64,000 nucleotides of DNA, taken from the UHGV virus genome UHGV-1366171; one strand, 5' to 3'. The DNA comes from a virus. The notes below the pieces were generated by a model, which was not told where the DNA came from, ran no database searches, and worked only from the letters and a program-made list of their open reading frames with translations. Below are positions 10,204 through 22,421 of this stretch, piece after piece (the stretch's first letter is position 1; every line of letters starts with the position of its first letter). The position numbers and the translations under genes are program-made.

Positions 10204-10502
10204 ATGTAACACAATATATAGTTTAAATCAGATTTATAATGCTATATATTGATTGTTACAATGTAAAAACAGGGTACACTTTGATTTTACAGTTAGATAT
10301 TGATTTATTTTTGTGCAATATGACAATAAAAATAGTGCTAAAGAATACGGCAGAGGGGAGCATTGACAGCTTGACAGATGGGACGGGGTCTAAAACAGAT
10401 CAGCCGCACCGCCCAAATGACCTCTAAATCCGCCCCAAAAAGAAAAAAGACCGTTTTAAGAATACTGGATTCCATTTTTCCCGAAAAATAAAAAAGAGCC
10501 TG

Positions 10503-10664
10503 TTATTTATCAACAGACTCAAGATACATTGCAATAGCTTTATCAAATAATTTGCTTAATGGTATTCCAGTTTTATCAGAATAATCCTTTAGTTTTTGAT
10601 ACAATTCCTTGTCAATGGCAGTAGATATAGCGGTTCTGTTTTTAAGACCTCTGTTTGTAGTCAT
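10503..10664 (-). CDS. ribbon-helix-helix regulator (paralog 1), 53 aa
   Basis: MTTNRGLKNRTAISTAIDKELYQKLKDY...; RBS AGGAGG; divergent from the serine recombinase. Confidence 0.6.
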   Translation of the reverse strand: MTTNRGLKNRTAISTAIDKELYQKLKDYSDKTGIPLSKLFDKAIAMYLESVDK

Positions 10665-10697
10665 AAGATACACCTCCTTTTGAAAAAAGTATATTAT

Positions 10698-10760
10698 ATC
10701 TTTCAATTTATTTCAATAAATACTTGATTTTATTTTCAAAAATGATATAATTGAAAGTAG
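10698..10760 (+). promoter_or_regulatory. promoter (TTGATT-N16-TATAAT) flanked by inverted repeat TCTTTCAAT / ATTGAAAGT
   Basis: operator-like IR flanking -35/-10; same architecture as 20776-20830. Confidence 0.5.
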
Positions 10761-10788
10761 TTGAAATAAACTTAAAGGAGATGTTTTT

Positions 10789-11388
10789 ATGAAGATTGGC
10801 TATGTCAGAGTATCAGCAGCAGACCAGAATGTGGCAAGGCAGATTAAAGCTATGCAGGAAGAAGGCGTGGAGAAAATATATATAGATAAGCAGTCAGGAA
10901 AAGACTTCAACCGTCCAGAGTACAAGAAAATGATTTCTAGCCTAAAACATGGAGATGTCCTTGTACTTCATTCAATAGACAGGCTTGGAAGAAACTACGA
11001 GGAAATTCTTGAACAATGGAGGATTATCACAAAAGAGATCAAGGCAGATGTAATTGTTCAAGATATGCCGCTCCTTAATACAACAATTTCAAGAGATTTG
11101 GACGGAACCTTTATAGCAGATTTGGTACTCCAGATATTATCTTATGTTTCTGCAAAAGAGCGTGACAACATAAAACGTAGACAGCGTGAGGGTATCGCCA
11201 TTGCGAAAACACAGGGGAAATACAAAGGGGGAAAATCGAAAAGGATTGACGAGCAATTATTTACTGAAAATCTTGTAAGATACAGAAATGGAGAAATTAC
11301 AAAGTTTCAATTTGCAGTAAATATTGGTGTATCAAGACCGACACTTGACAAAATTATTAAAGAACGGGAGGAAGCGAATAATGATTGA
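10789..11388 (+). CDS. small serine recombinase (resolvase/invertase family) with C-terminal HTH
   Basis: N-terminal catalytic MKIGYVRVSAADQ (Ser nucleophile), ...LDRLGRN..., C-terminal HTH IGVSRPTLDKIIK. Confidence 0.8.
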   Translation: MKIGYVRVSAADQNVARQIKAMQEEGVEKIYIDKQSGKDFNRPEYKKMISSLKHGDVLVLHSIDRLGRNYEEILEQWRIITKEIKADVIVQDMPLLNTTISRDLDGTFIADLVLQILSYVSAKERDNIKRRQREGIAIAKTQGKYKGGKSKRIDEQLFTENLVRYRNGEITKFQFAVNIGVSRPTLDKIIKEREEANND

Positions 11389-11842
11389 TTTATCAAATAA
11401 ATATTTCAGAACTGAGTCCGATGAACAGAGTAATAGGCTATTGAGAATTGCAGTAGCGCAAGGCTATCATCTTCCGAAAGGCATTGCCGCTTTAATTGGA
11501 AACCGAATTTTTAAATTCACAGGCTTTCCATATAAGGCGGTATCATTTCCAGAGAATATATCGGCAAATGAAGCAGTTATTGACTATGCAGACGCATTCG
11601 GTGATGAAGATAGGGAACTCAAAGAGATTTTAGATCGTTCAACTAGATTCTGTCGAGCGCATGGGTATAGTATACTTAGAATTTATGCAGATGAAAATGA
11701 CAATGAGTATTCCGGTTCCGCTTTTGCGAAAACAGTTGATGGAGGTAACATTAAGACTGAAACACGGCTTCCTAAACCAAGAAAAGTTACTCTGGAAGAA
11801 ATTGAACAGCGATTCGGCTGTCCTATCGAAATAGTGTCATAA
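11381..11842 (+). CDS. hypothetical protein
   Basis: ATGA-coupled to recombinase. Confidence 0.4.
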   Translation: MIDLSNKYFRTESDEQSNRLLRIAVAQGYHLPKGIAALIGNRIFKFTGFPYKAVSFPENISANEAVIDYADAFGDEDRELKEILDRSTRFCRAHGYSILRIYADENDNEYSGSAFAKTVDGGNIKTETRLPKPRKVTLEEIEQRFGCPIEIVS

Positions 11843-12114
11843 AATTTTACCACAATTTTCGCCTACCGGCAAACACATCAGATAAATTCTAATTCACTTA
11901 CAAAAGATAAAGCCCATTCGGGTGAATAATTCCACAAAAGATAAAATCGGGCAATCCGAAAAAATTCCAAAAACAAAAAACGAGTTACGTCAACCGCAAT
12001 TTTGGATATGACCCCTAATCATAAAACCTATGGCGTAATGTATTATGTTTCCTGAACTGCAATCTATTAAGCGTATAATTTGGGATTATAAAAGCGAAAA
12101 AACAGGAAATGTTT

Positions 12115-12187
12115 GGGAATATAGCTCAGCCAGGAGAGCACATGACTGTTAATCATGTTGTCGAAGGTTCAAGTCCTTCTGTTCCCG
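12115..12187 (+). tRNA. tRNA-Asn (GTT)
   Basis: GGGAATA-TA-GCTC/AGCCAGGA/GAGC-A-CATGA/CTGTTAA/TCATG-TTGTC-GAAGG/TTCAAGT/CCTTC-TGTTCCC-G; 73 nt cloverleaf. Confidence 0.8.
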
Positions 12188-20295: not shown

Positions 20296-20531
20296 ACAAG
20301 AAAGTGATAGGAATTGTACTGATTTTGGCAATCTGCTTTGGATTGACGGGGTGCATAAAAGGAAATAGACTAGAAAACCAAGAAAACACATCTTGGTATG
20401 GCATATTAAATGATGGTTCTTGCTTTGTATATACATTTAAAGATGAAGAAACGGGAGTATGGTACATTTCAACATCTGAAGGCATCACGCCAAGATTGAA
20501 CGCAGATGGAACATTGTATGTGAGTGAATGA
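20292..20531 (+). CDS. small lipoprotein
   Basis: signal peptide MNKKVIGIVLILAICFGLTGC (lipobox LTGC). Confidence 0.55.
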   Translation: MNKKVIGIVLILAICFGLTGCIKGNRLENQENTSWYGILNDGSCFVYTFKDEETGVWYISTSEGITPRLNADGTLYVSE

Positions 20532-20577
20532 ACCTGTAAGGATTTCTTACAAGTTGGGAGGAAAAGATAAAAGCCCG

Positions 20578-20739
20578 TTATTTTCCAACGGACTTTAAAT
20601 ACATATCAATAGCTTTATCAAGTAATTTGCTTATGGGAATAGATGTTTCTTCCGAATAAGATTTTAAACGAGAATATAGTTCTTTATCAATAGCGTTAGA
20701 TATTGCTATGCGATTTTTTAAACCACGATTTTCTTGCAT
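20578..20739 (-). CDS. ribbon-helix-helix regulator (paralog 2), 53 aa
   Basis: MQENRGLKNRIAISNAIDKELYSRLKSY... about 70% identical to the 10503..10664 product; RBS AGGAGG. Confidence 0.6.
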   Translation of the reverse strand: MQENRGLKNRIAISNAIDKELYSRLKSYSEETSIPISKLLDKAIDMYLKSVGK

Positions 20740-20775
20740 ATAGAATCCTCCTTTGATTTGATAATTATATCATAT

Positions 20776-20830
20776 CTTTCAACTACTTGCAATTCAGTTT
20801 TAAATATGATATACTACAAGCAGTTGAAAG
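20776..20830 (+). promoter_or_regulatory. promoter (TTGCAA-N17-TATACT) bracketed by 14-bp inverted repeat CTTTCAACTACTTG / CAAGCAGTTGAAAG
   Basis: 13/14 complementary arms flanking -35 and -10; operator-like. Confidence 0.5.
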
Positions 20831-20856
20831 TAGTATTCTAAAAGGAATGTGGTTTA

Positions 20857-22056
20857 ATGAATGAAGAAGATAAGGGAGACCAAGAAAGGATGCTAAAGAG
20901 TTACAAGACGGAAATCAATCCAACTATGGAACAAATACATAAAATCAATAAAACAATTGGCACTTGCCGTTTTGTATACAACTTTTATCTTGCCCGCAAC
21001 AAAGAAGTTTATGAAAAAGAGAAGAAATTTGTATCTGGAATGGAGTTCTCAAAATGGCTAAATAATGTTTATTTAAAAGAGAATCCAGAGTATGTATGGA
21101 TAAAAGAGGTTAGCACAAAATCGGTAAAACAAAGCATTATGAATTCCGAAAGATCTTTTAAGAGATTCTTCAAAGGACAGTCCGGTTTTCCTAAATTCAA
21201 GAAGAAAGGAAAATCGGATGTAAAAATGTATTTTATGAAAACAAATTCTCAGACAATAATAACATGCGAAAGACACCGAATCAAAATATCGACACTCGGA
21301 TGGGTTAGATTAAAAGAAAAGGGATATATTCCTTGGGATTCAAATACTTACATTATCAAGAGTGGTACTGTTTCTTGTAGAGCTGGACGATATTATGTAT
21401 CAGTCTTGGTTGAGCAACCAGAAAGAGAAAGACTACAATTACAAGATTTTGGATTTGGAATTGACCTTGGTGTTAAAAATTTTGCGGTTATAAGCAATGG
21501 GCTTGTAAAGAAAAACATCAATAAAACAAATAAGGTAAAAAAATTAGAAAAACAACTAAAACGAGAACAACGGTGTCTTTCTAGGAAATACGAAAGTTTA
21601 AAGAAGAATAATAAGAAAGGAGAGTCTTCCAGAGAAAATATTCAAAAACAAATATTAAAGGTGAAAAGGCTTTATTGCAGGATAGACAATATCCGCACTG
21701 ACTACATCAATAAAACAATAGCTGAGATTGTGAAAACCAAACCATCTTATATCGCTGTTGAAGATTTGAATGTATCAGGTATGATGAAGAACAGGCATCT
21801 TTCGAAGGCTGTTGCATCACAAAAATTTTATGAATTTAGAGTGAAATTGGAAGCAAAATGCAAAGAATATGGAATTGAATTGAGAATTGTAGACAGATGG
21901 TATCCATCCAGTAAACTTTGCCATGAATGTGGTTGTATCAGGAAAGACTTAAAACTTTCTGACAGAGAATATGTGTGCGAATGTGGATATCATGCAGATA
22001 GAGATTATAATGCAAGTCTTAATTTAAGAGATGCCACATCCTACAAAGTAGCATAA
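20857..22056 (+). CDS. tnpB: TnpB (IS200/IS605-family OrfB, RuvC-like + C-terminal zinc finger)
   Basis: N-terminal OrfB_IS605 region (KTEINPT...GTCRFVYN), C-terminal CHECGC...CECGYHADRDYNASLNL zinc finger. Confidence 0.8.
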   Translation: MNEEDKGDQERMLKSYKTEINPTMEQIHKINKTIGTCRFVYNFYLARNKEVYEKEKKFVSGMEFSKWLNNVYLKENPEYVWIKEVSTKSVKQSIMNSERSFKRFFKGQSGFPKFKKKGKSDVKMYFMKTNSQTIITCERHRIKISTLGWVRLKEKGYIPWDSNTYIIKSGTVSCRAGRYYVSVLVEQPERERLQLQDFGFGIDLGVKNFAVISNGLVKKNINKTNKVKKLEKQLKREQRCLSRKYESLKKNNKKGESSRENIQKQILKVKRLYCRIDNIRTDYINKTIAEIVKTKPSYIAVEDLNVSGMMKNRHLSKAVASQKFYEFRVKLEAKCKEYGIELRIVDRWYPSSKLCHECGCIRKDLKLSDREYVCECGYHADRDYNASLNLRDATSYKVA

Positions 22057-22421
22057 ACAAGCATTTGCAGGTATGTACCGATGGCTAGTCGGGAATTGAC
22101 GACTGTGGAGTGTACAAGAACTTGTGAGTAGTATCTGTATTTACTCAGGGCGAAAGCATATACAGAGAAGCAGTAAGAAATGTTCGCAAGAACTTTCAAT
22201 ATCTCGATATGGATATCTTTGTTCATATTTTGAGTAGCAGCCAAGCGTAAGCGGAGATTGAAAAATTTTTATATTCACAGAATCGAGATGAAAAAATGTA
22301 AAACAAGCAAAATCTTCTATGTAAATAGAAATAGAAGTTAAGTAAAATAAGATGAAATAGTAAAATGAGAGTCATTTGAGAGCCAAATTTCTTACTAAGT
22401 AGGGAAGGAGGCTCTTTTGTT

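Follow-up and report, generated by a model that had tools for sequence, protein, structure and literature searches.

A probable accessory-gene slot between a TerS-like gene and terL in phage genome UHGV-1366171, and the Arc-linked, TnpA-less TnpB inserted at its right edge

The low-GC phage genome UHGV-1366171 raises a simple question: why do 12.2 kb of other genes lie between its probable small terminase gene and terL? In the 64,000-nt stretch of this genome that was analysed, here called the window, the interval (10204-22421) runs exactly from the stop codon of the open reading frame (ORF) 9574-10203 to the TTG start of TerL. Its borders are as follows.

9574-10203, plus strand: TerS-like gene, probably for the small terminase subunit (209 aa), bordering the slot on the left
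22422-24131, plus strand: TerL, large terminase subunit, right border of the slot (phrog_38, E 2.5e-52)

An SPP1-type portal gene follows TerL at 24814-26343 (Pfam). An earlier note on this DNA had taken the two terminase genes to be normally adjacent, and the interval to be one mobile or recombinationally acquired module of about 12 kb bounded by serine recombinase and TnpB units. The reading as a single mobile island fails. The interval is accessory cargo, not core phage genes, and is recombinationally active; it is most likely this lineage's version of an accessory-gene slot that is kept clade-wide between the TerS-like gene and terL and has been filled piecemeal.

Window genes were mapped onto 80 IMG/VR loci whose TerL is 75-80% identical to that of the window, and the gap was measured in the 52 loci that hold both border genes, flanks having been fetched to 10 kb. 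In all 52 the TerS-like gene and TerL are 3.4-9.7 kb apart, with tRNAs in every gap and a core of tRNA-Gln and tRNA-Met in the same slot in most. A second set of 17 Lachnospiraceae genome loci, from Blautia, Dorea, Lacrimispora, Acetatifactor, Faecalimonas and several Clostridium sp., has TerL proteins only 31-46% identical and gaps of 1.8-8.8 kb. Moreover, in the cultured Clostridium phage Maintenon (ON453900) the genes annotated as terS and terL lie 2.65 kb apart with tRNA-Trp and tRNA-Gln inside. Across these 70 relatives (52, 17 and Maintenon) the gap thus spans 1.8-9.7 kb and nearly always contains tRNAs, and the two genes, supposed to be normally adjacent, never are: an empty junction was found in 0/52 IMG/VR loci, 0/17 genomes and not in Maintenon, the smallest gap being 1.8 kb. 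Because no empty junction occurs in the 70, including those with TerL at 31-46%, the gap is ancestral to the clade.

Within these borders the window carries, besides two Arc cassettes and a tnpB unit that are listed further on, the following features.

10789-11388, plus strand: small serine recombinase of the resolvase/invertase type (199 aa; PF00239, phrog_125)
11381-11842, plus strand: partner ORF (153 aa), co-occurring with the serine recombinase in 18 relatives
12114-12188, plus strand: tRNA-Asn (ARAGORN and Rfam tRNA, 69 bits)
12192-12300, plus strand: YrlA-like Y RNA directly after tRNA-Asn (RF02553, full-length, sub-threshold)
12537-13991, plus strand: Rsr/Ro-like vWA protein (484 aa; DUF2828 and DUF7788, weak VWA_2)
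13963-17563, plus strand: 11 small co-oriented ORFs, the slot's most variable zone (ORF list and gene calls)
17743-19101, plus strand: tRNA array of Gln(UUG), Met, a fifth tRNA, Thr and Pro (ARAGORN, Rfam)
19102-19723, plus strand: stretch of 620 nt in which no gene was called, matched at 90% identity by the close relative L145
19724-20531, plus strand: three or four small ORFs
20011-20295, plus strand: conserved Zn-ribbon protein, with a homologue upstream of TerL in 78/80 relatives and in Lachnospiraceae genomes
20292-20531, plus strand: lipoprotein-like DUF6440 protein (DUF6440, E 2e-4)

One mobile module of about 12 kb is contradicted not only by the missing empty junction; the contents also come and go separately. 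Of the 80 IMG/VR relatives, 33 have a homologue of the serine recombinase in the same place and 18 have its partner; the Rsr-like gene is present in 25, the ORF at 16972 in 36 and the Zn-ribbon ORF in 78, while TnpB is present in 0; for 9 of the 11 ORFs at 13963-17563 no homologue was found in the same 80. The Rsr-like homologues (55-58% identity) usually come after the tRNA array, whereas the window has its Rsr-like gene before it. In prophages with a 100% identical TerS-like protein and flanks 95-99% identical, other small genes, including an HNH_3 gene, replace 14003-15013 and 15405-16313. A 226-aa HNH_3-like gene, absent from the window, lies directly after Rsr in three prophage loci with the identical TerS-like protein, L163, L165 and L166 (~14430-15110 in locus coordinates).

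The comparison of presence and absence proposed by the earlier note therefore gave a divided answer: the modules vary, but the slot is at the same place in all relatives. Its suggested break in GC skew or k-mer composition at about 10.2 and 22.4 kb did not appear, since composition is continuous: GC, GC skew and tetranucleotides show no break at either position, and inside the interval the tetranucleotide distance (0.21-0.28) is in line with the mean of the window (0.26 +/- 0.04). That the cargo is accessory and recombinationally active stands, since modules are present or absent independently in relatives, and Pfam, PHROG, ARAGORN and Rfam recover the parts list of serine recombinase, tRNA-Asn, Rsr-like gene, tRNA array, TnpB and structured tail. 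Of the supposed 17 or so mini-ORFs the run itself exists, but gene callers give only about 14-16 small genes in the interval. The supposed boundary of recombinase and TnpB units dissolves, the TnpB unit being a separate insertion nested at the right edge.

Taken together, this is an ordinary, unusually well-stocked phage plasticity region of known kinds of parts. Like other plasticity (moron or accessory) regions and tRNA clusters of phages, such as that of Maintenon, it has co-oriented accessory genes and tRNAs between late genes, and variable content within fixed borders. It differs from the terS-terL interval of Maintenon in its much larger size of 12.2 kb, the largest of 71 compared, and in its Rsr/Y RNA module, recombinase and TnpB.

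The comparative result is independent of whether ORF 9574-10203 is correctly labelled TerS. With good probability, on its sequence and position, the ORF encodes the small terminase subunit. Its best PHROG family is the TerS family phrog_606 (E 9e-7), and 7/12 diverse homologues match the same family; the protein has a helix-turn-helix (HTH) followed by helical segments, like TerS proteins, and shows a weak alignment to the protein annotated as TerS in Maintenon, whose gene occupies the same position. Searches of Pfam, NCBIfam and PDB sequences with the protein gave no match, and a profile of its homologues against PDB sequences found only the HTH of a LacI regulator at E 1.9. Were the true TerS another gene, or none needed, the interval would be the tail of an early or accessory region before terL with nothing wedged into it. 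We hold this to be unlikely: besides the shared PHROG family, the TerS-like layout and the Maintenon alignment, a 9574-type gene stays upstream of terL even in relatives with TerL at 31% identity, and a strong terminator and a promoter-like site precede the 9574 gene.

The most interesting component of the slot is a putatively Arc-gated, TnpA-less IS607-type TnpB at its right edge, with the following parts.

20578-20739, minus strand: arc-R, Arc-like ribbon-helix-helix (RHH) repressor gene (53 aa; phrog_3180, E ~1e-19; PF12651 RHH_3), the second of two
20740-20856: predicted divergent promoter/operator region of arc-R and tnpB
20857-22056, plus strand: tnpB, RNA-guided nuclease (399 aa; HTH, OrfB and TNB domains, Pfam PF12323, PF01385, PF07282)
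22057-22240, plus strand: guide-RNA scaffold (reRNA or omega RNA; RAGATH-18), ending at the transposon right end
22241-22260, plus strand: presumed guide, CCAAGCGTAAGCGGAGATTG
22241-22421, plus strand: lineage-specific spacer with the presumed guide and the TerL ribosome-binding site, found only in this phage lineage

Neither L004 nor L001, the closest relatives by TerL, carries the block, and L201 lacks it too; they have ~64 bp instead, and homology to these loci stops at 20564 and resumes at ~22370-22402. By this alignment, the RHH-TnpB-RNA block (20565 to ~22240-22370; 1.7-1.8 kb) is the only demonstrable insertion in the slot. A GGGAGG lies 4-9 nt to the left of the left breakpoint, not at it.

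TnpB scores 312.8 bits with the NCBIfam guided_TnpB model (cutoff 100), 174.9 with IS607_TnpB (cutoff 350) and 289.3 with IS200_TnpB (cutoff 425). Its motifs are intact, namely the RuvC D/E/D residues (GIDLG, VEDL, ADRD) and a Zn finger (CxxC...CxC). The structured tail of the earlier note is RAGATH-18 (RF03064) at 22102-22176, with 62.2 bits against a gathering score of 44.9. We confirmed 240 TnpB relatives in viral contigs and examined 78, of which 55 could be aligned across the right end. These 55 independent loci share ...ATTTTGAGT(A/G)GCAG and diverge exactly after the position of 22240; in the window, homology ends at 22240 after ...ATTTTGAGTAGCAG, which marks both the right end and the end of the scaffold. 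Upstream, most TnpB homologues at 65-74% have the 3′ end of an IS607-type tnpA (...LYGLRKYKKQ) directly before tnpB. Beside the window's tnpB there is no tnpA; the arc cassette is in its place and the left end is not recognisable. Between the cassette ATG and the native tnpB start, which is probably 20890, ~22 nt of the tnpA 3′ end are left, and their fusion to the cassette start codon gives TnpB an 11-aa N-terminal extension.

IS607 TnpBs use RAGATH-18-derived guide RNAs and a target-adjacent motif (TAM) of AGGAG or GAGGG (PMC11061315). The window's unit resembles ISFba1 and other IS607-family TnpB/reRNA systems (PMC11061315) in its ~390-aa TnpB with intact RuvC triad and Zn finger, and in the above-threshold RAGATH-18 directly downstream, followed by a sharply conserved right end and then the guide. 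It differs from them in several ways: tnpA is missing, the left end cannot be recognised, an Arc cassette is joined on at the start codon, no target flanked by a TAM could be found for the guide, and the score with the IS607_TnpB model is below cutoff. In the window and in 158 loci the search for a guide target returned the guide alone. The guide 16-mer has 16 exact matches in viral contigs, of which only L173 (the L145 contig) is from this lineage; the other 15 are unrelated, which is about chance by our own estimate. The 20-mer is absent from genome contigs, taken as one genome per species.

In the right flanks of TnpB relatives (L081-L158) an ATG lies 5-13 nt past the right end in 25/37 distinct insertion contexts, so these IS607-type elements tend to separate a Shine-Dalgarno sequence from a start codon. 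Such placement fits the published AGGAG TAM, which resembles a ribosome-binding site; the window flank has no such ATG. Insertion of an IS607 element at the AGGAG of the cassette ribosome-binding site was considered and rejected, since the right cassette keeps sequence beyond it, up to the ATG. TnpB also occurs elsewhere in genomes of the same clade (L069 and L112 on one contig, L015 and L117 on another), and from these other positions we infer that such elements invade the clade repeatedly.

Could the unit from arc to guide RNA (20565-22240) instead be an intact, still mobile Arc-containing IS605/IS607 element with TnpA supplied in trans, and not a decayed chimera? Its left breakpoint against L004 is the start of the arc cassette, its right end is the conserved end of the family, the TnpB catalytic residues appear intact, and arc is divergent from tnpB in described Arc-containing elements (bioRxiv 10.64898/2026.09.24.754181). 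We nevertheless find this improbable. An arc gene accompanies only 1/78 TnpB relatives, that one from the same phage lineage; the arc terminator begins ~5 bp from the breakpoint, which leaves no room for a left end; the ~22-nt tnpA remnant looks like the scar of a deletion or fusion; the ATG seen in 25/37 insertions is missing from the right flank; and neither a second copy nor a guide-matching target turned up in the sequences searched. On a further reading the TnpB is no decaying insertion: without TnpA but catalytically intact, it and its guide RNA would be maintained by the phage just before terL as an RNA-guided nuclease controlled by an Arc switch. Induction or co-infection would then set it free to cut the genomes of rival phages or of phages without TnpB, as a homing endonuclease or as a weapon between phages, and the paralogous Arcs would form one small regulon that also gates the recombinase. 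We consider this idea improbable.

The left cassette lies 10,075 bp away, next to the serine recombinase.

10503-10664, minus strand: arc-L, Arc-like RHH repressor gene (53 aa; phrog_3180 'Arc-like repressor', E 6e-19; PF12651 RHH_3)
10665-10788: predicted divergent promoter/operator region of arc-L and the serine recombinase, homologous to 20740-20856

Each arc gene has a terminator hairpin (arc-L 10496-10520; arc-R 20570-20596) and a spacer of ~120 bp in which promoter-like sites were identified as consensus matches only. In the left spacer the sigma-70-like sites (plus strand 10724-10751, minus strand 10716-10688) are among the region's best and are accompanied by an inverted repeat at 10700-10716 / 10761-10777. 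The right spacer has sites on the minus (20792-20764) and plus strand (20787-20815), both with an extended-10 TG, and a 14-nt inverted repeat, CTTTCAACTACTTG / CAAGCAGTTGAAAG. The Arc proteins are 72% identical. Moreover, 10496-10791 and 20570-20861 are 65.5% identical over 307 columns (74-81% in the best blocks), with a global alignment score of 77 against -53 +/- 10 for random segments, and the homology runs up to the ATG of the downstream gene. They form the longest direct repeat in the window, so that the paralogous, directly oriented RHH-operator cassettes of the earlier note are real. The RHH genes lie on the minus strand; the plus-strand ORFs at 10239-10427 and 20292-20531 encode no RHH protein.

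Nor are the cassettes matched ends, because the right RHH protein is closer to an RHH protein of an unrelated phage than to the left one: it is 81% identical to that of L184, an unrelated phage contig, and 72% to arc-L. The DNA of the right cassette, with its promoter, shares 71-74% identity with cassettes from unrelated phages (L185, L187, L188). In unrelated phage contigs (L183-L197, and L019 at 19613-20912) RHH genes 62-81% identical to those of the window are arranged divergently from genes for HNH, NUMOD4+HNH_3 or repeated Zn-ribbon 'GGRGI...DRID..NCRW' proteins, several of them without a Pfam match. The same family thus stands beside HNH nucleases elsewhere, while in L004, the closest relative with the recombinase (at 83% identity), an XRE-type HTH protein is encoded divergently in its stead; the cassette is therefore best seen as a swappable regulatory unit. 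Judged by these homologies, the two cassettes are members of a portable, swappable regulatory cassette family and not the ends of one element.

According to a preprint of September 2026, Arc represses a divergent tnpB promoter in IS605-family elements, and arc genes also adjoin recombinases and homing endonucleases (bioRxiv 10.64898/2026.09.24.754181; Moon, Zedaveinyte, Wiegand, Sternberg). The window shares with those transposons a small RHH gene divergent from tnpB across a short spacer with two promoters, here predicted ones, and the presence of related arc genes beside recombinases and homing endonucleases (here and in L184-L195). It differs in the lack of tnpA, in its IS607/RAGATH-18 TnpB, in its prophage setting and in having two paralogous cassettes; Arc action here is predicted.

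The recombinase beside arc-L matches PF00239 over residues 3-145 (E 4.6e-28) and phrog_125 'DNA invertase' (E 9e-53). It has S10, the motifs YVRVS and DRLGRN, and a C-terminal HTH near residues 170-190; of the NCBIfam families matched over the full length, Mpi invertases rank first, with scores far below family cutoffs. It shares with Tn3/gamma-delta resolvases and the Hin, Gin and Mpi invertases an N-terminal catalytic domain, an active-site serine, a C-terminal HTH and a length of ~200 aa, but it differs from those systems in that neither a pair of sites resembling res, hix or gix nor an invertible segment was found; in the whole window no invertible segment or site pair was convincing, apart from the arc cassettes themselves. 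The possibility that it is a displaced IS607 TnpA was rejected on domain order (catalytic part N-terminal, HTH C-terminal, the reverse of an IS607 TnpA with its N-terminal MerR-like HTH); the IS607 transposase model matches the catalytic part only (profile 57-141), with 21 bits against a cutoff of 110. The 153-aa partner ORF has no family match.

Tn3-type systems have their res site in the intergenic DNA that precedes the resolvase gene, and one might suppose, from the resolvase-type gene beside one of two directly repeated cassettes, that these are res-like sites between which the recombinase excises or captures ~10 kb of cargo as a circle; this is very unlikely indeed, since no deletion between the cassettes and no empty-site variant was found among contigs with exact TerS, Rsr, TerL or TnpB proteins (24 with the TerS-like protein, 24 with Rsr and 4 with TnpB were read) or in the 70 relatives, the cassettes are only 65-70% identical overall, the right RHH protein is nearer to that of an unrelated phage, the same family drives HNH nucleases where the recombinase is absent, the XRE-type regulator of relatives' recombinases marks the cassette as a swappable regulator and not an enzyme-tied site, and there is no compositional break.

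Several points weigh against the reading as a clade-wide slot filled piecemeal. Gaps beyond ~10 kb in relatives are censored by the length of the fetched flanks. As the TerS label is moderately supported, the description "between two terminase genes" may be mislabelled. In their best blocks the two cassettes may be marginally each other's best DNA match, and an old duplication in situ may have produced them. Lastly, the empty-site comparators for the arc-tnpB block are only 71-86% identical in DNA, and no near-isogenic allele lacking the block was found in metagenome contigs: a vacant allele with the left flank abutting the guide had 0 matches there, and one with the left flank and the TerL ribosome-binding site 45-75 nt away returned only the known L004 type.

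The RNA genes near the left of the slot accompany the Rsr-like gene. With 43.3 bits against a gathering score of 69, the YrlA (RF02553) match stays under the threshold (E 3e-8 in a local search). The earlier note's Y-RNA-like RNAs thus come down to one sub-threshold YrlA-like RNA, the second being only hinted at by T-arm-like repeats: between the first and the Rsr-like gene, 12310-12500 holds a T-arm-like sequence (12458-12475) and a weak tRNA-like match (12328-12384, 19.7 bits) and may encode a second Y-like RNA. The Rsr-like protein matches phrog_850 'RNA-binding protein' (E 7e-154), with no match to any solved structure among PDB sequences; the literature on DUF2828 yielded nothing informative. 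This candidate module is like the bacterial and phage modules of Rsr (Ro60-like) and YrlA in having a vWA Ro-like gene preceded by a tRNA and a tRNA-like YrlA match. It differs in that the YrlA match is under the Rfam threshold and the protein has no sequence match to a solved Ro or Rsr.

In the run at 13963-17563 only 3 ORFs have PHROG matches, all of unknown function. Within the tRNA array, tRNA-Gln(UUG) (17743-17833) is unusually long at 91 nt. The fifth tRNA (18188-18270, 83 nt) has 48.7 bits with Rfam and is called tRNA-Arg(CCG) by ARAGORN at a relaxed threshold only. L004 and L001 also conserve, at 90%, an 81-nt block that lies at 18312-18392. In the stretch without a called gene a tRNA-like element at ~19502-19623 has acceptor-like pairing CTGGCAG/CTGCCAG (19502-19508 with 19617-19623), a T-arm GGGGAGTTCGATTCTCCCC with a T-arm-like hairpin at 19598-19616, and a 10-bp extra hairpin; neither ARAGORN nor Rfam called it, and its fold z-score is only -1.8.

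As to the phage itself, a search of GenBank phages for near-identical DNA with 8000-26000 returned nothing, similarity to deposited phages at the DNA level being nil. A Blautia hydrogenotrophica protein seen on 935 contigs has the same sequence as the TerS-like protein (100% identity). In bacterial contigs the prophage is integrated directly after eno-secG-rnr-smpB, and integrated copies (L162 and others) match the window from 4214 onward only, at 99.99% identity. Because the match starts only there, and because 1-4213 of the window holds a tyrosine integrase (2899-4116) and genes of phage replication type, the window appears to be the excised, circular form of the phage, with a predicted attP at ~4117-4363. 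Its clade is made up of temperate phages with an SPP1-type portal, from Blautia and other Lachnospiraceae.

The copies of a 31-nt direct repeat lie at 4109-4139 and 4272-4302. Two copies of a 49-nt direct repeat (7306-7354 / 8116-8164, 78% identical) precede the TerS-like gene, with a near-consensus promoter (TTGACT/TTGACA ... TATAAT) ahead of two small-gene clusters, and in L165 an HTH_26/ParE toxin pair is found in place of the DUF4160/DUF2442 pair upstream of TerS. Far downstream, a 24-nt inverted repeat, 88% complementary, has arms 11 kb apart (40692-40715 / 51803-51826).

We therefore picture, for the slot filled piecemeal, a history in which an ancestral slot at the head of the rightward packaging and structural gene block would have changed module by module, by recombination among related phages and by invasion of selfish genes. 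The gains would comprise an Arc-repressed small serine recombinase with its 153-aa partner, a module of tRNA-Asn, YrlA-like RNA and Rsr-like gene, a fast-turnover run of small ORFs, the clade's core tRNA array, the conserved Zn-ribbon gene and, nested at the right edge, arc with an IS607-type tnpB that has lost tnpA and its RAGATH-18 guide RNA. As all interval genes except the two arc genes are co-oriented with the packaging genes, the cargo is probably transcribed by read-through with them, and its expression would supply tRNAs, an Rsr/Y RNA module for RNA handling and small proteins in lytic growth. An Arc dimer or tetramer would bind the inverted repeat in the ~120-bp spacer and repress its own gene together with the recombinase or tnpB, a step suggested by the anatomy of the cassettes and the published Arc-tnpB system; such repression would limit damage by DNA-active enzymes in the lysogen.

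In summary, a gap between the packaging genes, 12 kb long here, is normal and ancestral across a widespread clade of Lachnospiraceae phages. For annotation this means that terS is not to be expected beside terL in this clade, and that repeats alone are insufficient for calling a mobile island. The right edge of the slot offers a natural example of the recently described Arc-tnpB architecture in a very common human-gut Blautia prophage, in which Arc is joined to an IS607/RAGATH-18 TnpB without its transposase. Moreover, the occurrence of one Arc cassette family beside HNH homing nucleases and a serine recombinase supports the idea of "portable brakes" for DNA-cutting selfish genes.

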